Shown here one piece after another: positions 11,261-51,585 of a DNA stretch of 64,000 nucleotides (positions are counted from its first letter, which is position 1; each line of letters starts with the position of its first letter). Made by a program: the position numbers and the translations under genes. The stretch covers positions 15,328 to 79,327 of the forward strand of contig CAVXDC010000008.1 in assembly GCA_963760365.1 (NCBI GenBank), read 5' to 3'. The notes beneath the pieces were generated by a model. It was not told the origin of the DNA. It worked only from the letters and a program-made list of their open reading frames with translations, and did no database searches. The stretch is from an uncultured Phycisphaerae bacterium. GTDB taxonomy: Bacteria; Planctomycetota; Phycisphaerae; SM23-33.

Positions 11261-12412
11261 TCATGACCGGTTTGCAATCTGCGCGTACGCCCGCAGCAGC
11301 TCATCCACGTGGCGCGACATGCTCAACCCCCCCGCCGCCTGCCGGCATGCGGCGGCGAAAACCCCCCGTCGCGCCGGATCGGCCAGGGCTTCCATGGCCG
11401 CGACGATGGCCGAGCGGCTTCGGGGCGACGGCACAACCAGGCCCGCGCCACCCCGCAGCACCTCCGCCGCGCCGTTGAAGGCGGTGGTGATGGAGGGAAC
11501 GCCCCATCGCGTCGCCTCCAGCACGACGCGGCTGCATGGATCGTACCAGCTCAGCAGCAGGCACACGTCGGCGGCGGCGTACCATGGGAAGATATCCTCC
11601 GTCGGCGGGACGAAGAAGACCGCCGGCCCCACGTCGCGCAGGGCGGCGTGGCGATGGTAGCCTTCCACCAGCTCCCTGCCGACGATGACGAGCCTGCCGG
11701 CCCGGCGGCCTCGGCCGTGATACCAGCGGGTGAAATTCTCGATGGTTTCGGCGACGCCCTTGAGGGCGAAGTTCGTCGCGACGGTCAGGAAGACCACGTC
11801 CCCCTCACCGGCCCCAAGATGCGCCCGCAGCTCCTGCCGCCATTGGCGGACCCGCTCGGCCGGTGCTTCGGGCACCTGGACGGCGTTGTAGATCACCTGC
11901 ACGCCGTCCGTCCGGCCATAGTAGCGGGCGAACTCCTCGGCCACCATTTGGCTGACGGCCAGGCACAGGACGCCGGCGTCGGCGGCAATCTGCCGCTCCA
12001 ACCGGCCCAGCAGGCGCCGGCAGCGGTTGAACGGCCGGGCCAGGTGGACCAGGGGCCTGCCCAGGATCGTCCGTCGCCGTAGCGACGCGGCGAGCTGCGC
12101 GGGGATCGTGCCGCCCCGCGGCTGATAGACGTTCGCACCGGGCAGCGGCAGCATGGCGTGGACCACGTCGTAACCGCCGGTGCGGAGGGCCTCCTGGGCG
12201 GCGGCGATAAAGCTTTTCAGCCGCGCCGCCCGGCTCAGCCCGCCGGTCTTGAGCGGAAGGACTTTGACGCCCCGGCCGCTCCAGCCGCCCGACTGGCACA
12301 GGACAGTCACCTCGTGCCCGCGGCGGGCCAGCTCCGCGGCCATCTGGGCGGTGGAGGTCTCACGCCCGCCGCGGCGGACGTCCATCCTCTCGATGACCAG
12401 GGCGATCTTCAT
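11261..12412 (-). CDS. Glycosyltransferase family 4 (WaaG-like LPS core)
   Basis: GGRE, AVSQMV, VIYNAV, NFALKG, YAAADV..SWYDPCSRVVLEA. Confidence 0.9.
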   Translation of the reverse strand: MKIALVIERMDVRRGGRETSTAQMAAELARRGHEVTVLCQSGGWSGRGVKVLPLKTGGLSRAARLKSFIAAAQEALRTGGYDVVHAMLPLPGANVYQPRGGTIPAQLAASLRRRTILGRPLVHLARPFNRCRRLLGRLERQIAADAGVLCLAVSQMVAEEFARYYGRTDGVQVIYNAVQVPEAPAERVRQWRQELRAHLGAGEGDVVFLTVATNFALKGVAETIENFTRWYHGRGRRAGRLVIVGRELVEGYHRHAALRDVGPAVFFVPPTEDIFPWYAAADVCLLLSWYDPCSRVVLEATRWGVPSITTAFNGAAEVLRGGAGLVVPSPRSRSAIVAAMEALADPARRGVFAAACRQAAGGLSMSRHVDELLRAYAQIANRS

Positions 12413-17734: not shown

Positions 17735-17856
17735 GGCGAACGGATTGTTCGAAGTTCGGAGTGCGGAGGTCGCAGGGGTAAACACCCGGAGGGGGGATTC
17801 TCACCGTAAGCAACAGGCTCACTTCGCCGAAGCGAAACGCTTGCTTCCTTGCACAC

Positions 17857-17940
17857 AAAAACACGCCGAGACCTTTCACGTCCCGGCGTACTCGTCGGTA
17901 CAGTCAAACTACTGGTGTTCGCGAATCAAATGTCTTGCGC
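17857..17940 (-). terminator. Conserved 3' trailer + intrinsic terminator, copy 1
   Basis: Minus strand TAGTTTGACTGTACCGACGAG, then ACGCCGGGAC-loop-GTCTCGGCGT and a T-rich tail. Confidence 0.75.
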
Positions 17941-18834
17941 TCAGGAGCGCCTGCGGCGCAGGAGGCCCAAGGCACCCAGACCCAGGACCGTCAACGTCGC
18001 CGGCTCGGGCACGAACTGGATGACCAGCGTCGGCTGGTCTGCTTCGTCGGGGGCTTCCCTGCTCTGGAAATACATCGTGTATTGGGAACAGAGCAACAGC
18101 GAAATGGATTGATCCGTGTCCAGGGCAATAACGTCCAGGAAGTTCTTTGTGTTGGGATCCGGTGACCATCCGCCAGCGGTATAGACGTAGTTGGTGGAGC
18201 CCAGACCGGTGTTGGGGGTCGCGTTCAGCAGGTTCCACGTGACACTCCTGGCCGTGTCGAAGTGATTCGCATCAACCCAGGAACCCCTGATGACTGGCAT
18301 CCCAGGCCAGCCGTTGGCATCGGGATCGTAAGGATAGTTGGGGTCGATGTCGTTCCAGTCCTTGATGAAGTATTCACTGTTGGCCACGTTGCTGGAGCAG
18401 TTGCCGTAATATTCCAACGCGCTCCGGTAGGTGATGTTGTTTTCGCCCCACGTGTCGTAATATTCCGACAACGCCCACACCCGCAGCTCCCTGCCGGCGA
18501 AGTTATGGTAGGAACTGTTGGCGTCCGCCTGGGCCGTCAGCTTCAGCGAGTACGCCACGGCGTTGGCGGCGACCATATCCATATTGTTGGGCAGGTCAAA
18601 GCGGAGATACGACTTCTTGGCAAACACCTCCGCGTCTAAGTTGAGCGGTCTCGTCTCGATCCGGTTCACGTCGCCGTAGTTGGTGTTCATGTCGGCCAGA
18701 TCCACCAATGCGTCCGCACTCGCAATGGCCGTCCAGGTGTACGTACCCCCGTTCAACGTCAACATACCGCCAGCGCTGGCGACCGTTCCCATCACCAGCA
18801 TAAGACCGCACACCACAATCAATTTTGTCTCCAT
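17941..18834 (-). CDS. DNRLRE/CBM96-like domain PEP-CTERM protein, copy 1
   Basis: Signal peptide METKL.., DA.V..TNYG, SYLRFDL, W.E..ITY, S.E..P.LVI; C-terminal VPEPATLTVLGLGALGLLRRRRS. Confidence 0.92.
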   Translation of the reverse strand: METKLIVVCGLMLVMGTVASAGGMLTLNGGTYTWTAIASADALVDLADMNTNYGDVNRIETRPLNLDAEVFAKKSYLRFDLPNNMDMVAANAVAYSLKLTAQADANSSYHNFAGRELRVWALSEYYDTWGENNITYRSALEYYGNCSSNVANSEYFIKDWNDIDPNYPYDPDANGWPGMPVIRGSWVDANHFDTARSVTWNLLNATPNTGLGSTNYVYTAGGWSPDPNTKNFLDVIALDTDQSISLLLCSQYTMYFQSREAPDEADQPTLVIQFVPEPATLTVLGLGALGLLRRRRS

Positions 18835-19077
18835 TTTATTACCCTTCCTTTTGTGAAAAGAAACAGACGACCTTTGCCATGAGAAGAAAAGACGTGAAGC
18901 ACAGCGACAACCCCATGCCCACATTCCTTCCTTCTTGGCGTAAGGCAGGCCGCAACCTCCCCACCGGGGATTTCCTAGGAACCAGGCCCCGTTGGTCCCA
19001 ATCAACCCATCCATCTGCTCCATAGTTTTGACGGGTTGCCTACTTCGTCATTGTCCTCCATTCCCTTCAATTTTCAA
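18835..19077 (-). promoter_or_regulatory. sigma70 promoter + conserved structured 5' leader, copy 1 (most diverged)
   Basis: TTGAAA-N16-GACAAT (19077-19050); hairpin AACCCGTC/GATGGGTT with an ATGGAGCAGA loop; GCCTGCCTTAC; AAGAAGGAAGGA. Confidence 0.7.
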
Positions 19078-19148
19078 GTCGGTAAAGGCGAACCACGGAG
19101 GAAAAACTCAAAAAGCTTTCTGCGGAGACCGATCCCGACAATCCAATA

Positions 19149-19235
19149 GAAAAAAACACGCCGGGACCTTTCACGTCCCGGCGTACTCGTCGGTACAGTC
19201 AAACTACTCTTGTTCGCGAATCAAATGTCTTGCGC
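19149..19235 (-). terminator. Conserved 3' trailer + intrinsic terminator, copy 2
   Basis: Nearly identical to copy 1; ACGCCGGGAC/GTCCCGGCGT stem with a T run. Confidence 0.78.
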
Positions 19236-20183
19236 TCAGGAGCGCCTGCGGCGCAGAAGGCCCAAAGCACCCAGGCTCAGGACCGTCAACGTCGCCGGCT
19301 CGGGCACGAACTGGATGACCAGCGTCGGCTTGTCGCCCGCGCTAGCCGCTTCCCTGCTCTGGTAATACGTCATGTGATTGGCGCCGAGCATGAGGGAGAT
19401 GGAATCATTCGTGTCCAGGCCAACGAGGTCCAGGAAGTTGGCGATGCTGTCATTACCGTCCCACTCGTCCCCGGCCGTGATCACCGCGTTGGTGTAGGCG
19501 CCGTTGGCGTCGGCGGAGTTCGTGTGAAGCAGATCCCACGTGACACTTCGCACCGTGTTCATTTTGGCCTCATTGACCCAGTAACCCTGCATGATCTCCA
19601 TCGTGGGATAACCCTTCTTGGGACCATTGGGATCATTGGGATCAATAGGCTCGTTCACGGGATAAGGATAGTTTGGGTCGAGGTCCGCCGAGGTGTAGAT
19701 GAAATACTTCGCTTTGTCGCTGGGGGCGTGCCCGGAAACGCTGCCGTAAGACTGGAGTCCTTTCTTATAGGTGATGGTGTCTTCGGCCCACGTGTCGTAG
19801 TACTCCCTCAACGCCCACAGCCGAATCTGCTTGGTGTTCATGTCGTGGTAGCCGGTGTTGGCGTCCGCCTCGGCCGTCAGCTTCAGCGAGGCCGCCACAA
19901 CGTTCGCGGCCGTCAGAAACGAGCTGCTGGGCAGGTCAAAGCGGATGTACGACTTCTGGCCATGTTCATCCGGGTTGGCATCAGCCAGGCGGCTCGGTGG
20001 GACCGTCTCCAGCCGGTTCTCGGTCCCATAGTTGGTATCCGTGGCCGTCTGATCCACCCGCGCATCCGCCGTCGGCGTGGCCGTCCAGGTGTACGTGCCG
20101 CCGCTGAGGACCAGCGAGCCGGCGTTGGCCACCATCCCGAGTGCTCCTAAGGCAAATACGACAATGACGAATCGTTTCTCCAT
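19236..20183 (-). CDS. DNRLRE/CBM96-like domain PEP-CTERM protein, copy 2
   Basis: Same motifs as copy 1, a DPNDPNG segment and a VPEP-TM-RRRRS tail. Confidence 0.93.
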   Translation of the reverse strand: MEKRFVIVVFALGALGMVANAGSLVLSGGTYTWTATPTADARVDQTATDTNYGTENRLETVPPSRLADANPDEHGQKSYIRFDLPSSSFLTAANVVAASLKLTAEADANTGYHDMNTKQIRLWALREYYDTWAEDTITYKKGLQSYGSVSGHAPSDKAKYFIYTSADLDPNYPYPVNEPIDPNDPNGPKKGYPTMEIMQGYWVNEAKMNTVRSVTWDLLHTNSADANGAYTNAVITAGDEWDGNDSIANFLDLVGLDTNDSISLMLGANHMTYYQSREAASAGDKPTLVIQFVPEPATLTVLSLGALGLLRRRRS

Positions 20184-20436
20184 AGTCCCTTCCTTTCAAC
20201 CTTCCTTTCAAAAGACCAGATATCGTTGGTTCAACTGCGCAGAGGGAAAAATGTGAAGCATGGTTAGAACCCCATTCTCACATTCCTTCCTTCTTCGCGA
20301 AATGCGGCAACAACCTTTCCCGCCGCTGCTCCTAAGCGACGAGGCTCCGTTGGCTCCAAGCGTCCCGGATATCTGCTCTATTTTCTATCCGGGTGAATCG
20401 TCTCTGTCATTATCTCTCATTCGTCTTGTTTGTCAA
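20184..20436 (-). promoter_or_regulatory. sigma70 promoter + conserved structured 5' leader, copy 2
   Basis: TTGACA-N16-GATAAT (20436-20409); hairpin CCCGGATA/TATCCGGG; TTGGAGCCAACGGAGCC; second hairpin closing on GCGGCGGG. Confidence 0.78.
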
Positions 20437-20509
20437 GTCAGCAAGGGCAAGCGACGAGAAAAAAACACAAGATCGTCTTCTGCGGAGACTGTTCCAGTCA
20501 TCCAAAGTA

Positions 20510-20596
20510 GAAAGAAGCACGCCGAGACCTTCTCTGTCCCGGCGTGCTCGTCGGTATAGTCAAACTACGAGTGTTTGCGTATCAAATTACTAGCGC
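20510..20596 (-). terminator. Conserved 3' trailer + intrinsic terminator, copy 3
   Basis: TAGTTTGACTATACCGACGAG, then CACGCCGGGAC/GTCTCGGCGTG and a pyrimidine tail. Confidence 0.75.
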
Positions 20597-21515
20597 TTAG
20601 GAGCGTCTGCGGCGAAGCAGGCCCAAAGCACCCAGACCCAGGATCGTCAACGTCGCCGGCTCGGGCACGAACTGGATGACCAACGTCGGCCGGTCGCCTG
20701 CGGTGCCAGCTTCCAGGCTCTGATAATACGTCATGTGATTGGCGCCGAGCATGAACGTGAAGGAATCATCCGTGTCCGTGGCAATGATGTCCTTCATCTG
20801 GACCTGACTGGTATTGGGGTCCCAGCCGCCACCTGAAGTGTTGGCCCAGGTGGTTTGGGCGCCATTGCCGTCGGCGGAGGTCGTCTGCAGCAGGTTCCAC
20901 GTCACGCTCCGCACCGCGTTCATGTGGGCCTCATCCACCCACTTGCCTCGGATGACTTCCGTCCCGGGGTAACCGTTGACGTTGGGGTCATAAGGGAAGT
21001 TGGGGTCGATGTCGGTTGCGGACTTGATGAAGTACTTGGCGTTGTCGCTCGCCGCGTGCCCTGAAACACTGCCGTAATACTGAAGCGAGTTGTAATAGGT
21101 GATGGTGTCTTCATCCCAGGTGTCGTAATACTCCTTCAGCGCCCACAGCCGCAGCTCCTTGCTGTTCATGTCATGGTAGCCAGTGTTGGCGTCCGCCTGG
21201 GCCGTCAGCTTCAGCGAGGCCGCCACGACGTTGGCAGCCGTCAGGAACGAACTGGTCGGCAGGTCAAAGCGGATGTACGACTTCTGGCCATGATCATCCG
21301 GGTTGGCGTCGGCAAGGCGGCTTGGCGGGACCGTCTCCAGACGGTTCTCCGTCCCATAGTTGGTATTCGTGGCCGTCTGATCCACCCGCATCCGCCGTTG
21401 ACGTGGCTGTCCATATCCACGTGCCGCCGTCGGGGCTGAGGGTCAGCTCGCCGGCATTGGCCACCATGCCAAGCGCTCCTAAGACAAACACTGCAATTAC
21501 GAATCGTTTCACCAT
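20597..21515 (-). CDS. DNRLRE/CBM96-like domain PEP-CTERM protein, copy 3 (frameshift near 21390)
   Basis: Signal peptide in ORF 21294..21515 and mature part in 20597..21391; very close to copy 2. Confidence 0.9.
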
Positions 21516-21758
21516 ATTCCCTTCCTTTCAAGAAGACAAAATACAGATGCTCCGACAAACCGAGGGAGAGAGATGAAGCGCACCTACAGCTTCATCAAAC
21601 TCCTTCCTTCTTTGTGTAAGGCAGGCTTTTACAACCCATCCCGCCGCAACATCCTTGGCGACGGGGCTCCGTTAGCTCCAAACGCCCCGGTCCTTCGCTC
21701 CATACCTTGGACCGGGTCCATTACTCCCTTATTCTACCTCCTTCTGTCCTTCTGTCAA
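21516..21758 (-). promoter_or_regulatory. sigma70 promoter + conserved structured 5' leader, copy 3
   Basis: TTGACA-N16-TAGAAT (21758-21731); hairpin CCCGGTCC/GGACCGGG with a GTATGGAGCGAA loop; second hairpin loop CAAGGATGT. Confidence 0.8.
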
Positions 21759-21971
21759 GGGAACAAAGGCAATTGCAGCGAAAAACAACAAATAAAATGG
21801 GGCTTTCCGCCCCGCGGTTGGGGGTTCCCCAGGGGGGGTGGATGGGGCTTGTATGCCCCCTTTTCCTAAGGCTTGCGAAAGACCTTGGTCGTATGGTGGG
21901 CGTTTGGTGGGATGGAATCCAAAGCAATTCCCGCCCTCCCCTCCCAAGATCGCCGGCGGCAACCCTGTAAG

Positions 21972-22061
21972 AAAAACCAAGCACGCCAGACCTCAACCGG
22001 TCCGGCGTGCTTGCCGGTATAGTCAAAGCAACTAACTGCTTGCGAATAAACTTAGTTGTGC
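21972..22061 (-). terminator. Conserved 3' trailer + intrinsic terminator, copy 4
   Basis: TTTGACTATACCGGC, then AAGCACGCCGGACC/GGTCTGGCGTGCTT and a T run. Confidence 0.75.
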
Positions 22062-22997
22062 TCAGCTACGCTTGCGTCGGATCAAGCCCAAAGCACCCAG
22101 GGCAAGCACCGTCAGCGTCGCCGGCTCGGGGACGAACGTGATGGTCAGCGTCGGCTTGGAGGCCTCATCGGGGGCGCCTTCCTTGCTGTAGAGGGGCTGC
22201 CACGTATTGTTCGGGCCGAGCATGATCGTAATGGAGCTGTCCGTGTCGTAGTCAATGATATCCAGGAAGTTGTTGCGGCTGGAATCACCATTGCCATCCG
22301 AGGTCTGGACGGCGCTGGCACCATAATGGTACCCATTCGAATCTCCGGACGCGGTGTTCGTCACCAGACCGAACGTGTCCGAATCATACCAGGGTTGGAC
22401 GTTCTGCCACGTGGTCTCCGCCAGATACGTCGCCGGGATCCCGTTGGTGATGTAATAGTTGTACCACGAGTCGTTGGGGTCCAGACAGGCGGCTGCGTTG
22501 TTCTTGTTAAAGTACTTCGCGTCGCCTAGACCGGCCTTGACGTTTCCAAAACTCCCCAACGAGTTGGTCCAGTTGATGGTGTTTTCCGCCCAGGCGTCGT
22601 ATTGCTCATTCAACGCATACATCCGGATCTTCTTGCCCTTCTGGAGGGTGGTGGACCAATTGTTTGCATCCGTATCGACGGTGACCGTGACCAAGGCCTG
22701 GACGACGTTCGAAACAGGCATATTGGTAAAATCGTAACCATCCTCGGCGGTCGGCAGATCGAAGCGGATGTACGACTTCCTGAACGGTGAGGCGCCGGGG
22801 TCCACGTACAAGAAGTTTGCGTCCCCGTAGTTGTCGCCCTGATTCGAATCCAGGTCGCTCACCGTGGCATCTGCCCTTGACGTGACCGTCCAGGTGTACG
22901 TGCCGCCGGACAAAGTCAATACGCCGTTAGGGTCAGCACTGGCGATCGCTCCCATCGCAAGCACAAGTCCACATATAAGAACTACTCTCTTATCCAT
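22062..22997 (-). CDS. DNRLRE/CBM96-like domain PEP-CTERM protein, copy 4
   Basis: MDKRVV signal peptide, DNYG, KSYIRFDL, WAENTINW, YSKE..KPTLTITFVPEP tail. Confidence 0.93.
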   Translation of the reverse strand: MDKRVVLICGLVLAMGAIASADPNGVLTLSGGTYTWTVTSRADATVSDLDSNQGDNYGDANFLYVDPGASPFRKSYIRFDLPTAEDGYDFTNMPVSNVVQALVTVTVDTDANNWSTTLQKGKKIRMYALNEQYDAWAENTINWTNSLGSFGNVKAGLGDAKYFNKNNAAACLDPNDSWYNYYITNGIPATYLAETTWQNVQPWYDSDTFGLVTNTASGDSNGYHYGASAVQTSDGNGDSSRNNFLDIIDYDTDSSITIMLGPNNTWQPLYSKEGAPDEASKPTLTITFVPEPATLTVLALGALGLIRRKRS

Positions 22998-23238
22998 CGT
23001 GATCCTTCCTTTCGTGAAAAGACAAGGGCACTTCAACGACTTGAGGGAAAGAGGTGAATCAAGAATGCAACCCTATACTCACGCTCCTTCCTTTTGTAAG
23101 GCAGGCACGCAACCCGTCCCGCCGCTAAGTGATTGACGGCGGGGCTCCGTTAGCTTCCAAACGCCTCGGTCATTCGCTCCATACTACTGACCAAGACGCT
23201 CACACATACTATTGTACCTTGACTGTCCCGGATGTCAA
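22998..23238 (-). promoter_or_regulatory. sigma70 promoter + conserved structured 5' leader, copy 4
   Basis: TTGACA-N16-TACAAT (23238-23211); hairpin GCGTCTTGGTCA/TGACCGAGGCGT with a GTAGTATGGAGCGAA loop. Confidence 0.8.
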
Positions 23239-23454
23239 GAGAACAAAGGCGATTGCGGCCAAAAAACGGGGCGTTCCGACCCAGCGGTCAGGGGAATCCC
23301 CACAGGAGGGGGAAGGAGGCTTCCCGACCCTTTTCCCCCAAGATTCCCCTAAGATTCTCCTAAGATTTGCGATAACCCTTGCTCATGGGGTGGGATGGAG
23401 TCCAAAGCGATCCCCGTTGCCCCCTCTCAAAATCGCTTGAGGAAACCTTGTCAG

Positions 23455-23543
23455 TAAATCAAGCACGCCGAACCTTAACCGGTCCGGCGTGCTTGCCGGT
23501 ATAGTCAAAGCAACTAACTGCTTGCGAAAACTGCTTGTTACGT
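23455..23543 (-). terminator. Conserved 3' trailer + intrinsic terminator, copy 5
   Basis: Nearly identical to the copy 4 trailer. Confidence 0.72.
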
Positions 23544-24453
23544 TCAGCTACGCCTGCGACGGATGAGAGCCAGACCGCCCAGGCACAACATCGTCAGCGT
23601 TGCCGGTTCGGGGACGAACGTAATCGTCAGCGTCGGCTTGCTGGAGGCGGCCACATTAGCATCTGAGCTGTACAAAGCTTCCCAACCGTTGTTGGGGCCG
23701 ACCATGAGCGTCAGGGAATTGTCCGTGTCGTCATAGATCAGCTCCCGGAAGTTGATGGTGGTATCTCCACCCCCATGGCTAGAACCCGCACCATCGGTTT
23801 GTTGGGGAGTGGTCACCCCGTATCCGCTACCCGAGGTGGTAGCCGTGATCAAACCGAACGAGCACGTGTACGGCCATGGATTCGTGTTCTGCCAATAATC
23901 CTCTGCAACATACGTAGCCGGGACACCATTGGTGATGTAATAGTTGTAATACGTGTCAGTGGCGTTGCCATCCAGACAGGCGGTTCCGTTGCTCTTGTTA
24001 AAGTACTTCTGGTCTCCCAGGCCGGCCTTGACGTTTGCAAAAGTCCCTAACGCTTCGTTCCAGGTGATGGTGTTTTCCGCCCAGGTGTCGTAGACCTCGT
24101 ACAAGCCGTAGATCCGGGTCCTCTTGTTCGTCATTTTGGTATTGCTGTTCACCACGTTGCTGTCGACGGTGAGGGTCAGCAGGGCCTGGACTAGGTTCGT
24201 ACTGGTGAACTGGGCATTATCCGGCAGGTCGAACCTCATGTAGAACTTCTTGAACGGGGCGCTGGTCTGGTCGATCTTCATGAGGGTGTCGCTTCCGTAG
24301 TTCGTACCGGTGTTAGCCCCATCCACGAGGGCGTCATCAACCGCGGTGGCCGTCCAGGTGTACGTCCCGCCGCTCAACACCAACGAGCCAGCCGCTAGCA
24401 ACCGTTCCCATCGCAAGCACAAGGCCACATACAATAACTACTCTCCTATCCAT
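23544..24453 (-). CDS. DNRLRE/CBM96-like domain PEP-CTERM protein, copy 5 (frameshift near 24395)
   Basis: ATG 24453 gives MDRRVVIVCGLVLAMGTVAS, then shifts into AGSLVLSGGTY..; VPEP tail; closest to copy 4. Confidence 0.9.
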
Positions 24454-24456
24454 CAT

Positions 24457-24708
24457 GACCCTTCCTTTCAAAAAGACTACAGACAACTACTACAGATGCT
24501 CCAAGGGCCAGAGGGAAAGACGTGAGACGCAACAACAAGTTCGTCTCGTTCCTTCCTTCTTTGTGTAAGGCAGGCAGTTCAACCCATCCCGCCGCTACAT
24601 CCTTGGCGACGGGGCTCCGTTAGCTCCAAAACGCCCCGGCCATTCGCTCCGTACTACTGGCCGCGACGTTCACACATAACATTGTACCTTAACCATCCCG
24701 GCTGTCAA
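24457..24708 (-). promoter_or_regulatory. sigma70 promoter + conserved structured 5' leader, copy 5
   Basis: TTGACA-N16-TACAAT (24708-24681); hairpin AACGTCGCGGCCA/TGGCCGGGGCGTT with a GTAGTACGGAGCGAA loop; second loop CAAGGATGT. Confidence 0.8.
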
Positions 24709-24987
24709 GGATTGAAAGACGGCGGAGGACAAATTAAGAAAAACCAAATTTGGGTTATCCGAGCCGAGCGGGCAACAAGGCCTCTTTCATTCTGCCCGAA
24801 TTATCGTAAGATTATCAATAAAATGCACTTGCTGAATTCGGCCGGAGCCACATCACACCAAAGGAACCCGAAGGCCTAGAGGTGAAGTGGCTGCCAATTC
24901 ATTTCCTGAGGGCAACTTGTGAAAATCGTCCCCTTTCCCCCTTTGCTTTTTTGGTAGCTCATCCTGCCGGCTGGGTTGCGTGGGGGG

Positions 24988-26408
24988 TTAGCGTCCCAGA
25001 AGGCCCAGGCGGTGCATCTTCTTATAGAGCGTAGTGCGGTTGATGCCCAGTTGGCGAGCGGTGGCCTTGCGGCTGCCTCCGTTGGCGGCCAGGGCGGCCT
25101 GGATGATCTGCTTTTCGGGCTCATCCAGGGCCTGGTAGAGGGTTTTCCCAGCCGCGGAGGCCACCAGCTCGGCTGCGGCGGGTTGGCCCTGGGTCAGGGC
25201 GGGCGGCAGGTCGTCCACGTCGACCAGCGACTTGCGGCACAAGACCACCGCCCGCTCCACGGCGTTCTCCAATTCACGGATGTTGCCCGGCCAGAGATAG
25301 CGCTGCATCCGCTCCAGCGCCTCGCGGGTCACGCCCTCGATGGGCTTGGAGGTTTTTTCCACGTACTTGAGCAGGAAGTAATCGACCAGGAGGGGGAGGT
25401 CCCCGATCCGCTCCCGCAGCGGCGGCAGCTCGATGGTCACGACGTGGATGCGGTAGAACAGGTCTTTGCGGAACCGCCCGGCCTCCACCTCGGCCGCCAG
25501 GTCGCGGTGGGTGGCCAGGATCACCCGCACGTCCACGCGGCGGGTGTCGTTGCTGCCGACCGGCTCGAACGAGCGCTCCTGGAGCACGCGGAGGAGCTTG
25601 ACCTGGAGCTGCGGGCTGGCGGTGGCGACCTCGTCCAGGAAGATCGTCCCGCCATCGGCGGCGGCGAACTTGCCCTGCTTGTCGGACACCGCGCCGTGAA
25701 GGCCCCCCGGACGTGCCCGAACAGCTCGCTCTCCAGCAGCGTGTCGGGCAGGGCCCCGCAGGCGACCTCCACGAAGGGTTTGTCGCGGCGGCCGGAGCGG
25801 GCGTGGATCTCGCGGGCGATCAGGCTCTTGCCGGTGCCGCTCTCCCCGGTGATCAGCACGGTGGTGGGGGTGTCGGCCACGGTGTCGATCAGCTCGAAGA
25901 CCTTGGCCATGCGGTAGTGCTGCCCGATGATCTCACCGGAGCCCAAGCGGCTCGACATCGCCGCCCGCAGGCGGCGGTTCTCGTCCAGGAGCTGCTGCTG
26001 CTGGAGCGCCCGCCGGACGGCCAGGCGGACGTCGTCGTCGATGATCGGCTTGGTCAGGTAGTCGTAGGCCCCCAGCTTGATGGCCTCCACGGCCGACTCG
26101 ATCGTCCCGTAGCCGGTAATCATGATGACGGCCGCGTCGGGGGCGTGCCCCTTGGCCTGCCGCAGCAGCTCAAAGCCGTCGCGGTCCGGCATGGAGACGT
26201 CGGTGATGACCAGGTCGTATCGGCCGGCCTGGAGGCAATCGACGGCCTGGGCGACCGTCGCGACGGCGGTGACGTCGAAACCGTCCTGGCGGAGAAAGCT
26301 GCCCAGGCTGTCCAGGATGATCTGATCGTCATCCACCAGGAGGATGCGCGTCTTGGCCAGAGGGGCCAGAGGGGTCTGCGGGATGGCACTTTCGCTCTCG
26401 CCGGCCAT
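24988..26408 (-). CDS. NtrC-family sigma54-dependent response regulator (frameshift near 25695)
   Basis: REC (LLVDDD, ITDVSMP), [20 protein letters not shown] (shift inside GAFTGA), [15 protein letters not shown], Fis HTH. Confidence 0.93.
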
Positions 26409-26411
26409 GGC

Positions 26412-27500
26412 CTATCCTCCCGCGCCCCTGGCCTGGGCGACGGCCAAGCGGACCGGCACCGCGATCGTCACGATCGCCCCGCCTTCTGGGTTCGGCTCGG
26501 CTGAGATCGTCCCGCCCAGGGCGGTGACGATCTCGCGACAGATGGTCAGTCCCAGCCCCACCCCCTGGCCGGCGGGCTTGGTGGTATAGAACGGTTCAAA
26601 GGCCCTCCGAGCCTGCTCCTCCGTCAGCCCGCAACCGGTGTCGGTGAACATCAGGACGCACCGGCCATCGCCCAGGTGAGTGCGGATCGTCAGCGTCCCC
26701 CCCTCCGGCATGGCGTCCAGGGCGTTCTTGATGACGTTGCAGAAGACCTGGAACATCCGGACGTCCGTGGCCACGCCGCCGTCCTCCCCCAGGTCATAGA
26801 CGACGGCCACGCCCAAGGCCGACGCCCGCGGGGCAAAGGCAGTCACGGCCTCTTGCAACAACCTCTCCAACGATTCTCTTGCCCCCCCGCCGGATGGGCC
26901 GTGGTCCAGCATGTCGCGGATGATCGCCGCCATCCGCAGCAGACCGTCGCGGGCGGCGGCCAGGTGCTCTTGGGCCTGGCCTTCCACCAACCGCTGGGCC
27001 AGCCCAAGATAACGCAGCACACCGTCCAGCGGATTGTTCAACTCATGGGCCATCCGGGCCGCGGCCTTGGCCTGGGCCGCCAGACGCTCGCTGACGGCCA
27101 AGCGACGTTCCGCCGACGCCCGAAGCGAGACGTCCTCCACCACCACCAGCACGGCCTGGGTGCCGGCTTCCGGCGGCTGGATGGACTCCACCGGGCAGGG
27201 CAGGCGGCGCATGGAGACGTCCACCAGCAGCCGTCTGCTGCCGGCCTCGGCCAGCGACACGTTGCGGTGAACCAGACCCGCCGGCTCCTCCCAAAGTGCC
27301 GCCACGTCGGAGTCCCAGTTCAACCCCGTTCCTACCACGTCGCACAGCACTGCGGCCACGTGGTCGCCCGGGGGCAGGATTTTCTCCGCCTCCTGGTTGC
27401 GGTAGAGGATCGAGCCGCTCCGGCGGGCGATTAGCACCGCCTGCGGCAGCAGGTCCAACGCCAGCCACGCCATCTCCCCGTCGTCGTTCTTTTCGTTCAT
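26412..27500 (-). CDS. Cytoplasmic PAS-like sensor histidine kinase
   Basis: AHELNNPL H-box, NVIKNALDA, DTGCG, FEPFYTTK, GVGLGL. Confidence 0.92.
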   Translation of the reverse strand: MNEKNDDGEMAWLALDLLPQAVLIARRSGSILYRNQEAEKILPPGDHVAAVLCDVVGTGLNWDSDVAALWEEPAGLVHRNVSLAEAGSRRLLVDVSMRRLPCPVESIQPPEAGTQAVLVVVEDVSLRASAERRLAVSERLAAQAKAAARMAHELNNPLDGVLRYLGLAQRLVEGQAQEHLAAARDGLLRMAAIIRDMLDHGPSGGGARESLERLLQEAVTAFAPRASALGVAVVYDLGEDGGVATDVRMFQVFCNVIKNALDAMPEGGTLTIRTHLGDGRCVLMFTDTGCGLTEEQARRAFEPFYTTKPAGQGVGLGLTICREIVTALGGTISAEPNPEGGAIVTIAVPVRLAVAQARGAGG

Positions 27501-31971: not shown

Positions 31972-33012
31972 TCAGGCGGTGGTGGTTTGGGCGTCGTCGG
32001 AGAGGTGGCTGAAGGCGATGATGGGCGTGTCGGGACGCTCTTTGGCCACGTAGAGCGCACGGTCGGCCATGGACAGCAGCGCGTCGGCATTGGCGGGCTG
32101 ATCGGCCTCCAGCGAGGCCACGCCCGCCGACAAGGTGACGCTCCGCCCCAGTCCGTCCTTTCGTCCGCTTTCCAAGGCCAGTTGCTGGCGGATTCGCTCC
32201 CCCACCGCCAGGCCCCGCTCCACGGAGGTGTGCGGCAGCAGCAGCACAAACTCATCCCCGCCGTAACGGGCGGCCACATCGCTGCTGCGGAGCGAGGAGC
32301 GGATGATGTCGGCGGCGATGACCAGCACCTCGTCGCCCACCTGGTGGCCCAAGGTATCGTTGATCTGCTTGTAGTCGTCCAGGTCGGTCATGCAGCAGGT
32401 CAGGTCGAACCCGTAGCGGCAGGCCTCGGAGAAGTGCCGCTCCAGCAGCTCGGCGAAGTGCCGCCGGTTGGCCAGGCCCGTGAGGTGGTCGGTGATGGCC
32501 ATCGTCTTGACCTGCGCGAGCATCTCCTCCAACTGCGTGTTCTTGACCCGCAGCTCCCCCAGCATGGCCTGGTGCTCCCGCTGGAGCCGCTCGTTCTCCT
32601 TCTTGATGTGGTGCAGGCGGAGGTTCTTGTCCACCAGCACCGGGATGCCGAACAGGTAGTCCCCCAGCTTCACCACGTAGTCCATCGCGCCGCGCTGGAT
32701 CGCCTCGGCCGCGGCGGCGCAACTGTTCTCGCCCGTCACGAAGATGACCGGCAGGTCGACCCGCGCGAGGATCTTCTCCAGCAGCGCCAGCCCCGGCATG
32801 TCCCGCAGGCGGAAGTCCAGCAGGACGACGTCGAAGGACTCCAGCTTCGCGGCCATGCACTCGCTGGCCGATCCGACGGCCACGATGTGGCGGAACTGCG
32901 GATCGTCGTAATAAACGCTCAGGGCCTCGCACAACAGCTGCCGCTGATCGTTGTCGTCTTCGACGATCAGGATTCGTGGCTTGCGGGGGTTTTCAGTCGC
33001 TTCGGCGTTCAT
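31972..33012 (-). CDS. Response regulator diguanylate cyclase (REC-GGDEF)
   Basis: REC domain, DHLTGLANRR, intact ARYGGDEF with an RSSD I-site. Confidence 0.95.
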   Translation of the reverse strand: MNAEATENPRKPRILIVEDDNDQRQLLCEALSVYYDDPQFRHIVAVGSASECMAAKLESFDVVLLDFRLRDMPGLALLEKILARVDLPVIFVTGENSCAAAAEAIQRGAMDYVVKLGDYLFGIPVLVDKNLRLHHIKKENERLQREHQAMLGELRVKNTQLEEMLAQVKTMAITDHLTGLANRRHFAELLERHFSEACRYGFDLTCCMTDLDDYKQINDTLGHQVGDEVLVIAADIIRSSLRSSDVAARYGGDEFVLLLPHTSVERGLAVGERIRQQLALESGRKDGLGRSVTLSAGVASLEADQPANADALLSMADRALYVAKERPDTPIIAFSHLSDDAQTTTA

Positions 33013-34175
33013 GGGTTTTTGCCAGGGTTCAGTCGCCTGCGGGGGCCTGGCGGCTTTCGCCTTCGGTGCAGGTTATGTTGCGCTCTGGTTCTTCCGGCGT
33101 GCGGAACGTCCCGCTGGCTGGGGCCGCGGCGCCGAGTAGATAAGTCGTCCTCGGCCGGCGGGGCAGTCTGCTGGAGGGACAACGTTAAGCAGAAGCTTGA
33201 GCCCCGTCCTTCCTGCGACTCCACCCACACCCTGCCGCCGTAGGCGGAGGCAATCGCGCTGACCACCGCCAGGCCGATGCCCTTGCCGGGAACCTTGGCC
33301 GCCTGGGCCGTGGGGGTCCGTCGGAAGGGGAAAAAAATCTCCCGCTGCTGGTCGGCCGGGACGCCCGGCCCATTGTCCGTGACGCGGAACTCGTGGTACG
33401 GGCCGTCAATCCGGTGGCGGACGACAATCCTCCCGCCGGCGGGCTTGTCCATGTACTTGATGGCATTGTCGATGAGGTTCTGGAAGGCCTGGGCGATGCG
33501 GGTCTTCTCGGCGTGCAGGTGGGGCATCGTGCCGGCGACGTCCAGGCGGATGCCGCGGTCTTGAAGCTCAAACTCAAAGTGGCGGGCCTGCTCGGCGAGC
33601 ACCTCCGCGACGTCCACCCTCCGGCACCGCGCCGGTCCGGAGCGGATGCGCGACAGCTCCAGCAGCTCGGCGATCATGGCCGCTTGGGCGTCGGCGTTGG
33701 CGCGGATGCGCTCCAGGCGATGGCGGACGTCTTGGGGCAGGTCCTGGCCGTTCTTCAGCAACAGCATCGTGGCCATGCCGGCGATGTTCCGCAGCGGCGC
33801 GCCCAGGTCGTGGCTGACGGCCCGCAGGAATTCCTCTTTGTCGGCCAGCTCCGCCGTCATGCGACGGTTGGCCTCGGTCAGTTCCGCCGTGCGCCGGGCC
33901 ACTCTGGGCTTCAAGAGCATCCACCACACCAGCAGGGACCCCAAAGGAATCGCACAGGCGACAAGGCCCACGGCCATCACGAGCACCCGCTCCGGCGGCG
34001 ACGGCGCGGCGGCAAAGTAAAACCACCACCCGCCGCCCACCACGAAGAAGACCACCGCTGCAAGGAGCAGCATGGCCCTAGGCCCAGGCCTTGGGAGCTT
34101 GATGCGCAAATGAAGATGTCGCCTCTGGTCGGGCATGGGCATATCCGCTGGCCAAAGAGAGTGCCGCAAATGCAT
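33009..34175 (-). CDS. Membrane sensor histidine kinase (start uncertain)
   Basis: Two TMs, SHDLGAPL, NLIDNAIKY, DNGPG, GKGIGL; ATGA overlap with the cyclase. Confidence 0.92.
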   Translation of the reverse strand: MHLRHSLWPADMPMPDQRRHLHLRIKLPRPGPRAMLLLAAVVFFVVGGGWWFYFAAAPSPPERVLVMAVGLVACAIPLGSLLVWWMLLKPRVARRTAELTEANRRMTAELADKEEFLRAVSHDLGAPLRNIAGMATMLLLKNGQDLPQDVRHRLERIRANADAQAAMIAELLELSRIRSGPARCRRVDVAEVLAEQARHFEFELQDRGIRLDVAGTMPHLHAEKTRIAQAFQNLIDNAIKYMDKPAGGRIVVRHRIDGPYHEFRVTDNGPGVPADQQREIFFPFRRTPTAQAAKVPGKGIGLAVVSAIASAYGGRVWVESQEGRGSSFCLTLSLQQTAPPAEDDLSTRRRGPSQRDVPHAGRTRAQHNLHRRRKPPGPRRRLNPGKNP

Positions 34176-34357
34176 TTATCGGCAAGACCGGTCAGCGACT
34201 TCGGTTACGACAATAAGCAGGTTAAGGCCCAAGCGGCAGGCAAAAGAGGACGGATCGGCACCGGCCCTTCTGAGCGTTTTTTGTCAAAAAAGCCTAGAAA
34301 GCTCAGGAAGCCAGGAAAGATTTATGGCGAACAGGTCGAACGTTTGGGTTTTTGGGC

Positions 34358-34386
34358 TTGCATGATACACACCCGTAAGCTATACT
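34358..34386 (+). promoter_or_regulatory. Putative sigma70 promoter for the enhancer-binding protein
   Basis: TTGCAT-N17-TATACT. Confidence 0.55.
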
Positions 34387-34480
34387 GGTGTACCGTAGAG
34401 GCGCTTATCTCCACGGAGGTACCTCTTTAGTTTCGCACGGAGGCTTGCTTTATCAGTATCCATTTCGCAGGCATGGTCGG

Positions 34481-35560
34481 ATGAAGGAAGTAGGAGGAGA
34501 CACACATCCGTGCCTTGCTAGTCGCTCACTGCAAGGCGATTTCGCAGTCGGTGCGGTACTGGTCGGAGCCAGTGTTCCCTTCCGGAACGTTCTGAGGCTC
34601 GCTGACGCGGTGGCCGCCAACGACTGCGTGGTGCTGCTGGAAGGAGAGTCCGGCACCGGCAAAGAACTCCTGGCCAGGCGGATCCACGCCTATTCCAAGC
34701 GGGCCGGCGGACCGTTCATTCCCATCAGTTGCCCCTCCGTAACCTCAAGTCTTTTTGAGAGCCAGTTTTACGGCCACGTGCGCGGGGCGTTCACCGGCGC
34801 TTCCACCAACACGCTGGGCATCGTCCGGGCCGCCGAGGGCGGCACGCTGCTGCTGGATGAGATCGGGGAGCTGCCGCTGCACCTTCAGCCCAAGCTGCTG
34901 AGGCTGATCCAGCAGCGCGAGGTGACCCCCGTGGGGGCGTCCAAGCCCATCGCGGTGGACGTCCGCTTCATCGCGGCCACCAACTGCAACCTCGCCCGCC
35001 GGGCCGCCGAAGGTAAGTTCCGATCGGACCTGTACCACCGCCTGAACGTCGTCCGCATCGTCATCCCGCCGCTGCGGGACCGGCGGGAAGACATCGCGCT
35101 GCTGCTGGACTTCTACCTGGACTACTACGCCCAGCTCTACGAGATGCCCCCCCGCCAGCTCGTTCCGAACCTGCGGGAAGCGCTGCTGAAGTACCCCTGG
35201 CCGGGGAACGTCCGCGAGTTGTGCGGGTACCTGGAGCGGCAGTACGCGGCCAAGATGCCGCTAGTCATGCCCGATGCCATCGATTGGGACGATGGCAGCC
35301 TCCTAAGGGCAACCGAGGCGGAAGAGGATGCGGATGAGAATGAGGATGAGAAAAAGGTTTCGTCGGAACCCACCCGGCCCGGCAACCGCCGCAGGAAGTC
35401 GGACCGCCCCGAGCCGCTCACGCTGGCCCAGGCCGAGGCGGACATGATCCGCCGGGCGCTGGAGCTGACCCAGTACAACCGCTCCGCCGCCGCCAAGCTG
35501 CTCCAAATCCACCGCTCGACCCTCCAGCGCAAGATCCGCCTGCTGGGCCTGGACCGCTGA
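34481..35560 (+). CDS. sigma54 enhancer-binding protein without an N-terminal regulatory domain
   Basis: GESGTGKE, GAFTGA, LLLDEIG, FRSDLYHRL, WPGNVREL, Fis HTH; the AAA+ domain starts about 25 aa from the N-terminus. Confidence 0.92.
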   Translation: MKEVGGDTHPCLASRSLQGDFAVGAVLVGASVPFRNVLRLADAVAANDCVVLLEGESGTGKELLARRIHAYSKRAGGPFIPISCPSVTSSLFESQFYGHVRGAFTGASTNTLGIVRAAEGGTLLLDEIGELPLHLQPKLLRLIQQREVTPVGASKPIAVDVRFIAATNCNLARRAAEGKFRSDLYHRLNVVRIVIPPLRDRREDIALLLDFYLDYYAQLYEMPPRQLVPNLREALLKYPWPGNVRELCGYLERQYAAKMPLVMPDAIDWDDGSLLRATEAEEDADENEDEKKVSSEPTRPGNRRRKSDRPEPLTLAQAEADMIRRALELTQYNRSAAAKLLQIHRSTLQRKIRLLGLDR

Positions 35561-40354: not shown

Positions 40355-42675
40355 TTACGCGCGGGCCGCGTCGTCGTCCTCGGCGGCGGAGTCCTGCCGG
40401 TCGGCGGCGAAGGAGGCCTTCATCTCCTGCCAGTCCTCCAGCGTGACCAGGCACTCGCGGGCCTGGCTGCCCTTGTAGTCGCCCAGCAACCCCGCCTCGG
40501 CCATCTGGTCGATGATGCGGCTGGCGCGGCTGTAGCCGATCTGCAACCGCCGCTGGAGCAGCGAGACGCTGCCCCGCTGGGTCGCCAGGACGATCTCGAC
40601 GGCCTGGTCGAACAGCTCGTCCCTTTCCCCGTCAGCCCCGTCCAGCGACGCGGCGCTGAGGCGCGTCAGCTCGGTGCTGTAGTGCGGCTCGCCGCCCTTG
40701 TGCAAGGCGGAGACGACGGTGCGGATCTCCGCCTCGTCCACGTACGTGCCCTGGGCGCGGATCAGGCTGCTGGTGCCCGGCTGGAGGAACAGCATGTCGC
40801 CCTGGCCCAGCAGCACCTCGGCGCCGTTCTGGTCCAGGACGATGCGGCTTTCCAGCCGGCTGGCCACGCGGAAGCTGATGCGGCAGGGCATGTTAGCCTT
40901 GATCAGGCCGGTGACGACGTTGGCGCTGGGCCGCTGGGTGGCCAGGAGCAGGTGGATGCCCACCGCGCGGGCCTTCTGGGCGATGCGGATGATGTACGTC
41001 TCGACCTCCTTGGTGGAGGTCATGATCAGGTCGGCCAGCTCGTCGATGACGATCACGATGTACGGCAGGTGCACGGGGATCTGGGCGCCTTCTCCTCCTC
41101 GCTGGCCGCGCCGAGACGCTGATAGATTTCCTCGCGGCCCAGGCGGTTGTAGCCGGTGACGTTCTTGACGCCCGCCTCCTTGAACAGCTCGTACCGTTCG
41201 TCCATCTTGATCGTGGCCCATTCCAGGATGTCCTCGGCCCGCCGCATGTCGTTGACGATCGGGCATAGCAGGTGCGGCACGTTCTCGAAGGCAGCCATCT
41301 CGACCATCTTGGGGTCGATCAGGATCAGCCGGACCTGCTCGGGCGTCCGCGTCATCAGCAGCTCCACGAGAATGGCGTTGATGCACACGCTCTTGCCCGA
41401 GCCGGTGGTGCCGGCGATCAGCATGTGCGGCATGGAGGCCAGGTCGGCGACGATGGCCGAGCCGCTGGCGTCCTTGCCCAGGTACAGCGGCAGGTGCATC
41501 GTCTTTTCGGCATCGGGGGCGGCCTTCATCAGCTCGCGGATGCGGACGATCTCCTTCTGAAGGTTGGGCACCTCGATGCCGATGGTGTCCTTGCCCGGCA
41601 GGGGCGAGACCACGCGCACGCCCGGCACGGCCAGCGCCCGGGCGATGTCGTTGGCCAGGTTGCTGACCTGGGTGACCTTCACGCCCGGGGCCAGCGTCAG
41701 CTCGAACATCGTGATCACCGGGCCGGTCATGTGCCCCACCACCTCGGCCCCGACGGTAAAGTCGCCCAGGGTCTGCTGGAGCACGGTCCGCTTCTCGGCG
41801 GCCTGGGACTCCTGCATCTCAAGATAGTTCGTCGTCGGCTCGGCCAGGAGGTCCGGGGAAGGCAGCACGTATTCCTTGCCGTCCTGGCCACGGGCGATCT
41901 TGCCGGGCGTGGGCCTGGCCGGTGTGACCGGCGGCTTGGACGCGGGCCTGACGGCCGGTGCAAAGGGCACAGGCGCAGGCCTTACGGGCGCGACCGCTTT
42001 GAGGGGCGGGACGGGGGGCCTATCCTTGGCGGACGGGGCTTGGGCCTTGACTTCAGGCAGGTGAGTCCGGATGGCCTCCACCACCGCCGGTAGCCGGTTG
42101 CGCTCGAGCCAAACCTTTCGGCCCAGGCGCGGAATCTGGAGGACCAGGTTCTCTGCCGCCAGCAGCAGCCCGACGCACAGGGAAATGATGACGATGACCC
42201 ACGCCCCGGCCTGGGCAAACCGCGACAGCAGGTAATTCCCCACGGCCGTGCCGAGAATCCCCGCCGGCCCGACGGCCGCCCCATCGGCGGGCAAGGGCTT
42301 GATCAGGAAAACGGCGGCGCTGGCGGCGGCCATCAGGATGGCCACGCCGATGATGCGCCAGGGCATGGCGGTGATCCGGCCCCCCAGCACCAGGATAAAG
42401 GCCGCCACGGAGGCGAACGTCAACCCCATGTACACGCCCCCGCCCAGCCAATAGCGCAGCAAGTGGGCGAGGTAGGCCCCAACGATCCCGGCGGCGTTGG
42501 TGGGCTTTTGCGGCGGGTACACCGCCGGGGAGGGTGGGTCCTGCGGCGAATACGTCAGCAGGCTCAGCCAGCTCAGAACCACCAACCCCGTCAGCAGCAG
42601 CACGCCGCAGTACCGCACGGCCCTCCAACCGCCGTGGCCTTGCGGACCGGACTTGTCCTGCTGCTTGCCTGACAT
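40355..42675 (-). CDS. ftsK: DNA translocase FtsK (frameshift near 41085)
   Basis: 4TM N-domain, GPVIT, IGIEVPN, PHMLIAGTTGSGKS, IDELADL, ATQRPS, LLGQGDML, gamma domain SLLQRRLQIGYSRA. Confidence 0.97.
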
Positions 42676-42970
42676 ACCTGCGATGGTCCTATCCGCCATC
42701 CCGGTGCGTCTGACGCGCGGAGATAGCGTCGCCGCCTTGCCGAGCGCGCGGACAATTTTCTCACCTCACCCCTGCCCTCCCAGGCGAGGGTGGGTTGCGT
42801 CCCTGCGCCACGGTTCGCAAGCGCAGACTTCCTTATCTACTTATCGGACGGTCCGCCATCCGGTCTGCAAGGTATATCCCCGTTCATCCCCTGATTACCG
42901 TAACGACTGTATTCCGCATCAAAAAAGTCGCCCTAAGGGGAACACTTCTTGCCAGCAGACAGGACCGGCC

Positions 42971-46553: not shown

Positions 46554-46632
46554 TGATCCGCGGCCTGGCCTGTCCCACCGGCCCCTACCATTAAAAAGGT
46601 CCAGGCACTTATCAATTTTTTACTAAAAAGTT

Positions 46633-47928: not shown

Positions 47929-47929
47929 T

Positions 47930-47964
47930 CCTATTAGCCTATTAACCCTTTAACCTATTAACCT
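47930..47964. repeat. AT-rich short tandem repeat (cctattaa-like x4)
   Basis: cctattag cctattaa ccctttaa cctattaa cct, immediately upstream of the PlsR-like gene. Confidence 0.7.
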
Positions 47965-48205
47965 AAAGCCCATACCATATCGTCAAGCTCGCAGCGTTTC
48001 ACGACCTTTGTCGCGTCCGACAGGCACCAGGGAACAGGCACGCAGAGCCGACGACGGCCGTCCCCATGGAAGGACACGGTAAGTGAGGAACGCCCCCAGT
48101 CCGCCGTCTGCTTGACGCGCTCTCGGCCAGGAGTAGGATGGGGACGAGGATCGGAGGTAGATCCTCGAAATGGTAGTCCGGGAAGGAGCCCTGGGGAGGC
48201 ACGGC

Positions 48206-49093: not shown

Positions 49094-49104
49094 GCTTGTC
49101 TTGA

Positions 49105-49128
49105 AAGCCAGCGGAGGGAATCGAACCC
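49105..49128 (-). repeat. Direct repeat of the tRNA-Thr 3' end (att-like)
   Basis: aagccagcggagggaatcgaaccc at 49105-49128 is identical to 49208-49231. Confidence 0.9.
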
Positions 49129-51570: not shown

Positions 51571-51585
51571 AGGCCTATGTCCATT

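Follow-up and report, generated by a model that had tools for sequence, protein, structure and literature searches.

The window analyzed here comprises 64,000 nucleotides (nt) from an uncultured Phycisphaerae bacterium (GenBank assembly GCA_963760365.1, contig CAVXDC010000008.1, positions 15,328 to 79,327 of the forward strand; genome G000 below). On its minus strand, between positions 17941 and 24708, five tandem genes for cell-surface PEP-CTERM proteins were found, each forming its own transcription unit with a promoter, a leader, and a terminator. The leaders of these genes, numbered copy 5 to copy 1 in the direction of transcription, are the subject of this analysis and are interpreted as a candidate family of structured RNA elements acting on translation. 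Domain scans of the products of copies 1, 2, and 4 showed, in each, a DNRLRE/CBM96-type domain together with a signal peptide and a PEP-CTERM tail. The homologous copies 3 and 5 specify a tail identical in kind, but their reading frames are broken. The frameshift of copy 3 lies at approximately 21390-21400 (minus strand), near the 5′ end of the coding region, where two bases are apparently missing relative to copy 2; that of copy 5 lies at approximately 24400-24434 (minus strand), inside the signal peptide. Both copies may be pseudogenes or may reflect assembly errors.

Scanning of positions 17800-25000 for sigma-70-like promoters returned nine sites, compared with 2.9 ± 1.6 in shuffled sequences, and five of these precede the five genes. 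All five TTGA(C/A)A-N16-(T/G)ANAAT promoters proposed in the initial annotation were thereby recovered. Hexamer matches amounted to 11/12 in four copies and 9/12 in copy 1. The spacer measures 16 nt in each copy and varies in sequence; this constant length, together with the −35 and −10 hexamers and the variable spacer sequence, underlies the sigma-70 assignment. In a sister species (G002, see below), like hexamers were recognized by eye in two of three copies and weaker ones in the third (G2b), the scan having been run on the five window copies only. The leaders, taken as the stretch between the −10 hexamer and the start codon, are 213-227 nt long. Copies 4, 3, and 2 are each followed by a strong hairpin terminator, and a like hairpin is apparent 3′ of the copy 5 coding region. 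Over the 100 nt past each stop codon (e.g., 23444-23543 and 21962-22061), the 3′ untranslated region (UTR) and terminator are 64-86% identical between cassettes, which in several pairs exceeds the identity of the leaders.

A common plan (Table 1) unites the leaders: hairpins P1, P2, and P3, a 17-nt linker that hardly varies, and a set of purine and pyrimidine blocks able to pair with the ribosome-binding site. P1 begins 12 nt past the −10 hexamer, leaving a predicted 5′ tail of about 6 nt. Single-stranded segments connect the hairpins, namely the 17-nt linker, in which GGAGC occurs twice, a GGGUUG segment and a CCUGCCUUAC block. Hardly any variation is seen in the linker, the GGGUUG segment or block iv across the two species in which the leader occurs, even before unrelated genes. 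The Shine-Dalgarno (SD) block AAAGGAAGG is invariant, and an SD-like copy of it, block v, lies about 90 nt upstream.

This plan agrees closely with the initial annotation, which had described similarly long leaders with elements in the same order. Alignment of the five leaders (mean column identity 70% and 72% in two alignments) showed every block in that order, and the five quoted P1 stems, which differ between copies yet stay paired around a conserved loop, were all located. The linker, the sequence on which P2 closes (degenerate in copy 1), block iv (diverged in copy 2) and blocks v and vi were found as described, as was the SD block vii, which is present in 5/5 copies and doubled in copy 2. 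Two features were added. One is a third pyrimidine tract, located immediately 5′ of the SD block; the other is the long hairpin P3, in which block v always forms the 5′ arm and block vi the 3′ arm, with an upper helix that differs per copy. A conserved leader peptide was considered and rejected: by eye, a 7-codon frame at the 5′ end is common to copies 5 and 4, and none is found in copies 3, 2, and 1.

Table 1. Coordinates of the five PEP-CTERM cassettes and of the adjacent regulatory genes in the window
Feature	Position	Strand	Description
Copy 5 promoter	24681..24708	-	TTGACA, 16-nt spacer, TACAAT; 11/12 matches
Copy 5 leader	24454..24680	-	From -10 hexamer end to the start codon aligned with copy 4 (ATG 24453); predicted transcription start ~24674
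Copy 5 hairpin P1	24632..24668	-	11-pair stem, 15-nt loop with GGAGC motif
Copy 5 linker	24614..24629	-	Conserved, single-stranded; two GGAGC motifs 10 nt apart
Copy 5 hairpin P2	24588..24613	-	8 pairs, closes on GCGGCGGG
Copy 5 block iv	24565..24575	-	Pyrimidine-rich GCCTGCCTTAC, complementary to blocks v and vii
Copy 5 hairpin P3	24508..24561	-	Block v (24550-24558) paired with block vi (24511-24520), variable inner helix; predicted -21.9 kcal/mol, z = -3.43
Copy 5 SD block vii	24460..24468	-	AAAGGAAGG, U-rich tract just before
Copy 4 promoter and leader	22998..23238	-	Promoter 23211-23238, R1 match 23076-23202, P3 23040-23094, SD 23004-23012, ATG 22997
Copy 3 promoter and leader	21516..21758	-	Promoter 21731-21758, R1 match 21596-21723, P3 21560-21612, SD 21520-21528, ATG 21515
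Copy 2 promoter and leader	20184..20436	-	Promoter 20409-20436, R1 match 20279-20400, P3 20239-20295, ATG 20183
Copy 2 doubled SD block	20200-20208 and 20188-20196	-	
Copy 1 promoter and leader	18835..19077	-	Promoter 19050-19077, R1 match 18920-19043, P3 18880-18936, SD 18843-18851, ATG 18834
Promoters, -35 start/-10 end	24708/24681, 23238/23211, 21758/21731, 20436/20409, 19077/19050	-	Copies 5, 4, 3, 2, and 1
Terminators after copies 4, 3, and 2	22013-21978, 20549-20515, 19188-19154	-	Strong hairpins
Five downstream genes	17941..24453	-	DNRLRE/CBM96 domain and PEP-CTERM tail
Coding regions	23544-24453, 22062-22997, 20597-21515, 19236-20183, 17941-18834	-	Copies 5 (frameshifted), 4, 3 (frameshifted), 2, and 1
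Histidine kinase and NtrC-type sigma-54 response regulator	24988..27500	-	Kinase 26412-27500; regulator frames 25521-26408 and 24988-25689; directly upstream of copy 5; synteny kept in sister species

Further members were sought with R1, a covariance model of P1 through block v, in 92 genomes of the family and 99 of the order, together with G000, G001, and G002, the latter two being the other genomes of the genus. Besides the five copies in G000, this search of relatives yielded three extra copies in the sister species G002, all before PEP-CTERM genes, bringing the confident family to eight members in two species of one genus. The G002 genes share only the signal peptide and sorting tail with the window genes, their passenger domains being unrelated, and the query used retrieved no DNRLRE family member from G001 or G002. 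One of the three leaders is placed as copy 5 is, with the genes for a histidine kinase and a sigma-54 response regulator immediately upstream. No convincing R1 match was obtained in the 90 other family genomes or in 7 further genomes of the order, and none in G001 (91% complete) even at E-values up to 5. A 21-bit match in G062 without P1 was not counted, and a 13.8-bit match within the window (21924-22013) corresponded to the terminator after copy 4. A weak match was observed at L043:103-210 (minus strand; L043 being a sequence in G002), scoring 20.5 bits and lying before the next secreted-protein gene, with a P1-like hairpin and a shortened leader; this stretch, which was likewise not counted, may be a degenerate family member.

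Similarity searches gave a concordant picture. With one leader as query, BLAST against its own genome returned the five copies and short chance words only, nhmmer over the same genome returned the five copies only, and two partial matches in G002 were gained when BLAST was extended to 41 relatives; a 30-nt match in G028 had none of the features of the leader and was discarded. Pattern scans recovered 11 stretches in species-representative genomes and 21 in metagenome contigs. R1 confirmed 7 of these 32 loci, all seven scoring equal to the three G002 copies and the three from the genome set originating from one metagenome-assembled genome. Since the patterns were strict and the Infernal filters stricter, diverged members may have been missed. 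By these searches, the leader is a lineage-restricted family with a narrow distribution.

The pairing of P1 and P2 was evaluated in an R1-guided alignment of the eight members. In total, 86.8% of 152 cells pair, compared with 34-45% when the partners are slid. Changes on both sides were counted in 6/19 pairs (4 of 500 shuffles attained as many), and the covariation score of 0.327 (0.244 for comparison) was attained by 2 of 500. The initial annotation had taken compensatory stem changes as pointing to selection on RNA structure, and pairing is indeed kept beyond shuffled and slid controls, in few related sequences. Twenty-one cells are G-U and one is A-C, so that on the antisense strand the paired fraction would fall to 73.7%. 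Such an asymmetry fits an RNA read in the direction of the gene and would not be produced by a protein-bound DNA palindrome. P3 is predicted to fold in all eight leaders, its inner helices differing in sequence, with z-scores of −2.5 to −6.2 in six leaders and of −1.3 and −1.0 in the remaining two. Its base consists of seven pairs with an invariant G-U pair, and only this base, not the upper helix, can be aligned.

The leaders are 61-75% identical between the five copies. Ahead of the −35 hexamer, identity falls to about 50%, the level of unrelated sequences, in 8/10 copy pairs, the exceptions being copies 2 and 1 (75%) and copies 4 and 3 (63%). Leader identity is not uniformly above coding identity and the one does not track the other: between copies 5 and 3, identity amounts to 75% over the leader and 58% over the coding region, and between copies 3 and 2 to 64% and 79%. 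This mismatch between pairs suggests recombination. The weightiest argument that the leaders reflect more than shared ancestry is the presence of the three copies in G002.

Comparison with Rfam 15 at gathering thresholds detected two tRNAs only in the whole window. When E-values up to 10 were allowed for positions 17900-25000, four unrelated matches far below threshold appeared (CC1840, mir-9447, a small nucleolar RNA and an internal ribosome entry site), and no match was obtained in this region to the models of the cyclic diguanylate (c-di-GMP)-I and c-di-GMP-II riboswitches or of the ROSE and fourU thermometers. This cmscan result bears out the earlier statement that no known riboswitch could be matched. 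No RNA leader for PEP-CTERM or exosortase genes was found described in the literature searched, which did not extend to motif lists in supplementary files. Judged from sequence, the leader family is real, structured, and previously uncatalogued.

As to what the leader does, three pyrimidine blocks on the 5′ side of the SD block, namely block iv, block vi and the proximal U-tract, show complementarity to it. RNAalifold closed the 3′ half by pairing of block iv with the SD and of block v with block vi; in minimum-energy folds of single sequences, the SD was mostly paired with the proximal U-tract. The proposal that block vi can pair with either block v or block vii holds, the former as the predicted P3 in 8/8 leaders and the latter by base complementarity. 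With an estimated probability of about 0.55, the leaders would constitute a lineage-restricted family of structured, cis-acting 5′ mRNA leaders controlling translation. In short, the sigma-70-type promoter would start the transcript a few bases before P1, after which the RNA would fold into P1, P2, and P3, joined by conserved single-stranded segments, and end in the U-rich tract and SD block. The leader would act in cis on the initiation of translation. Block v, as an exact SD-like copy, would compete with the SD for the same pyrimidine partners, and because these partners are shared, anything fixing one pairing would open or close the ribosome-binding site.

Several observations weigh against this interpretation. 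The predicted folding energy of whole leaders is modestly below that of shuffled sequences (z = −1.97 and −1.76), and the alignment on which pairing was scored was fitted to the model structure, which favors pairing. The covariation set holds eight related sequences from two species, five of them paralogues, which limits the number of independent events, and the covariation evidence is therefore thin. Predicted SD accessibility, 0.05-0.76 in the leaders against a median of 0.39 in 150 control genes, is slightly but not significantly lower than in these controls (p = 0.076, in a test that treats related leaders as independent). Finally, no covariation supports pairing of iv with vii, iv with v or vi with vii, combinations that covariation cannot test because both sides are nearly invariant.

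An effector is suggested by the single-stranded motifs. GGA occurs 8-12 times per leader, about twofold more than in 185 control upstream regions (5.2 ± 2.1), and GGAGC 1-4 times, about sevenfold more than in the same controls (0.42 ± 0.66). GGA is present in the P1 loop of 7/8 leaders (not in copy 2) and in the SD block of all eight, and also in the linker and often in the P2 loop. A csrA gene (PF02599, 89.3 bits) was found in G000, as a stand-alone open frame of 94 amino acids with no flagellar genes seen in its 3-kb locus, and csrA is present in G001 and G002 as well. CsrA represses other envelope and biofilm genes, and the pgaA leader of Escherichia coli is a long leader with several CsrA sites. 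Passages in two reports describe recognition by CsrA of GGA in hairpin loops and around the SD, with repression of translation (PMC13443453, PMC6546359). The preferred effector, put forward tentatively, is an RNA-binding protein that would read the repeated GGA/GGAGC motifs, the obvious candidate being the stand-alone CsrA; bound across the SD, CsrA would repress synthesis of the surface proteins. Because GGA and GGAGC are enriched and csrA is present, a protein effector of this type is favored over a metabolite. Tandem hairpins with single-stranded GGA/GGAGC repeats, the lack of an enclosing helix and the one-genus distribution likewise fit a protein-bound leader better than a metabolite aptamer.

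The leaders resemble those controlled by CsrA/RsmA in preceding, at considerable length, genes of the envelope or biofilm type, in the presence of several GGA motifs, of which one is located in a hairpin loop and another in the SD, and in occurring in a genome with csrA. They differ in forming a discrete homologous family instead of a loose set of sites, in having a longer motif, and in the covarying P2 and P3 and the paired anti-SD blocks, which CsrA control does not need. Other points also tell against CsrA. Part of the GGA excess stems from SD-like purine blocks, block v is paired within P3, and the P1 loop of copy 2 is without GGA. The conserved motif, GGAGC plus an invariant AACGG, goes beyond what CsrA needs, and the presence of csrA does not discriminate since G001 has the gene without the leader.

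Among the alternatives, the best surviving one, although an unlikely one, is a constitutive 5′ UTR that senses nothing and fixes how stable and how well translated the mRNAs of abundant surface proteins are. Its hairpins would counter 5′-end-dependent decay, with the SD-like and U-rich tracts acting as sites for ribosome standby or for S1. The ompA 5′ UTR is the model for such a stabilizing leader of the standby/S1 type. Like ompA-type UTRs and SD-occluding thermometers, the leaders have a hairpin predicted to be 5′-proximal, single-stranded segments, a strong SD and a U-rich tract that can pair with it, and they are long, with a stable hairpin about 6 nt past the predicted start. SD accessibility is ordinary, and long upstream regions with strong SDs are likewise seen at other PEP-CTERM genes of the genome. 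Consistent with this explanation as well, the passages of Haft et al. (2006, PMC1569441) on these genes state that most of them (>65%) are single-gene operons with >200 nt upstream. A stabilizer, however, needs structure and not sequence, yet the linker, the GGGUUG segment and block iv are nearly invariant in two species, a conservation of single-stranded blocks expected neither for ompA-type UTRs nor for thermometers. The duplicated SD and anti-SD blocks, moreover, are unneeded for stability.

Somewhat less probable is a riboswitch for a metabolite or second messenger, in which P1, the linker, and P2 would form the aptamer and the ligand would set whether block iv pairs with block v, freeing block vi to close the SD, or P3 (v with vi) stays. 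In its favor are near-invariant nucleotides in linkers and helix bases alongside variable stems, a four-block SD/anti-SD layout like that of a translational expression platform, and the single functional class of the downstream genes, PEP-CTERM surface proteins. A response-regulator diguanylate cyclase is encoded about 7 kb away, and the c-di-GMP riboswitches (I and II) are similar in being structured leaders before surface-protein genes with a possible SD-occlusion platform. The leaders nevertheless gave no match to any riboswitch model, the c-di-GMP classes included, in the search described above. Their hairpins stand in tandem without an enclosing P1, and a possible YAAC/GUUG helix is lost in 2/8 leaders. 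A distribution over two species of one genus, as found among the 99 order genomes and in the pattern scans of the whole collections, is unusually narrow for a metabolite sensor, and repetition of the conserved single-stranded motif, with GGAGC occurring three times, is a trait more characteristic of protein sites.

A third alternative, in which the conserved blocks would be DNA signals, is very improbable. The linker would then be a sigma-54 promoter (GG-N10-GC) and the TTGACA-containing block an enhancer for the adjacent NtrC-type regulator, mirroring the PrsK/PrsR system of Proteobacteria. As reported in the same passages of Haft et al. (2006, PMC1569441), Proteobacterial regions have two 17-nt motifs, the first with TTTACA at its end and the second of the sigma-54 (−24/−12) type, set apart by a spacer of about 63 nt, with PrsK and PrsR as regulators. 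The window resembles this layout in its single-gene operons with >200 nt upstream, in a GG-N10-GC motif of 17 nt located about 70 nt (here ~73 nt) past a TTGACA-type block, with GG and GC at the right spacing, and in the kinase and sigma-54 regulator, which lie directly upstream of the first leader in both species; rpoN is also present in the genome.

When scored against the sigma-54 consensus, however, the linker matched at 6/12 positions, the most frequent score among all GG-N10-GC sites of the genome, and was rejected as a promoter; nine sites scoring at least 11 exist elsewhere, and no site of at least 9 lies on the gene strand upstream of any of the eight genes. The mapped pepA promoter of Aquincola is canonical (TGGCAC/CTGCTT) in the part of the report that describes it (PMC9850573). 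Hexamers with a spacer fixed in length and variable in sequence are a sigma-70 signature. A start 12 nt past the GC would fall in the P2 loop, leaving the pairing of P2, which is kept with sense-strand-specific G-U pairs, unexplained, and this counts against sigma-54. The regulator halves score 176.7 and 200.8 bits against a PrsR (TIGR02915) cut-off of 502.6, with the AtoC and ZraR models scoring higher, and the kinase 69.7 bits against a PrsK (TIGR02916) cut-off of 300. The window thus differs from the Proteobacterial system in strand-specific RNA-type pairing, in a sigma-70 promoter, and in a regulator and kinase below the respective cut-offs. The regulator is split into two overlapping frames in the window and its homologue in the sister species is intact (486 amino acids, L043:1985-3445); the split reflects either a frameshift or an assembly error. 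Separately, a sigma-54-like site matching at 11/12 positions was noted at approximately window position 799 (G000:C8:16126, minus strand), near the left window end.

That the leaders have no function, their likeness being left by recent tandem duplication or gene conversion of whole cassettes, is hardly credible: the copies are tandem paralogues with 3′ UTRs and terminators that are alike too, and leader and coding similarity disagree between pairs, but promoter-upstream DNA has decayed to about 50% in 8/10 pairs and the leaders have not, stems are altered with compensation while loops and linkers stay fixed, and the leader is kept at three loci of a second species before unrelated genes.

Elsewhere in the window, an exosortase (EpsH family) gene is located at approximately 57079-57855 (minus strand), a group-1 glycosyltransferase gene at 11261-12412, and, at 31972-35560, genes for the above-mentioned response-regulator diguanylate cyclase (GGDEF), a histidine kinase and a second sigma-54 activator. 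A regular expression for PEP-CTERM-like tails retrieved 47 open frames from the genome, some of them false positives, and the leader precedes five only. Enrichment of k-mers in 32 other PEP-CTERM upstream regions revealed SD-type words only and no shared leader. Scanning for the P2 closing word gave 195 matches genome-wide and was uninformative apart from two leaders in G000:C31. These lie at approximately 19870-20072 and 21215-21430 (plus strand), before two paralogous PEP-CTERM genes, and represent a second, different leader with a sigma-70-like promoter, an early P2-like hairpin closing on the P2 word, GGGAGC in the loop and a AAAGGAAGG-type SD; this leader may be a related module. At G000:C7, approximately 42000-53300 (minus strand), at least nine PEP-CTERM genes are clustered, several with a AAAGGAGC-type SD. 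In that cluster, the leader before 43282 contains four GGAGC motifs, and a near-canonical sigma-54 site (11/12) is found at C7:49445.

Among the surface proteins of environmental bacteria, those of the PEP-CTERM class are numerous and little understood. Outside the Proteobacteria, long non-coding regions before their genes are left without explanation in the passages of Haft et al. (2006, PMC1569441) that treat them. One such region now reads as a folded RNA leader with its own promoter, reused before unrelated PEP-CTERM genes in two species. A bolder and rather speculative extension would make the P1-linker-P2 part the sensor of a new regulatory RNA class for the exosortase/PEP-CTERM surface proteome of Planctomycetota. 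A small signal (e.g., a second messenger) or a dedicated protein would toggle the switch of four blocks (iv, v, vi, and SD), and whole sets of surface proteins would be translated on cue, replacing the sigma-54/PrsR control of Proteobacteria. The immediate reach is limited by the narrow distribution of the family and an uncultured host. If the leader is indeed regulated, it would provide a first entry point into how the exosortase-dependent surface proteome of Planctomycetota is controlled post-transcriptionally and would add a new RNA family to the catalogues.

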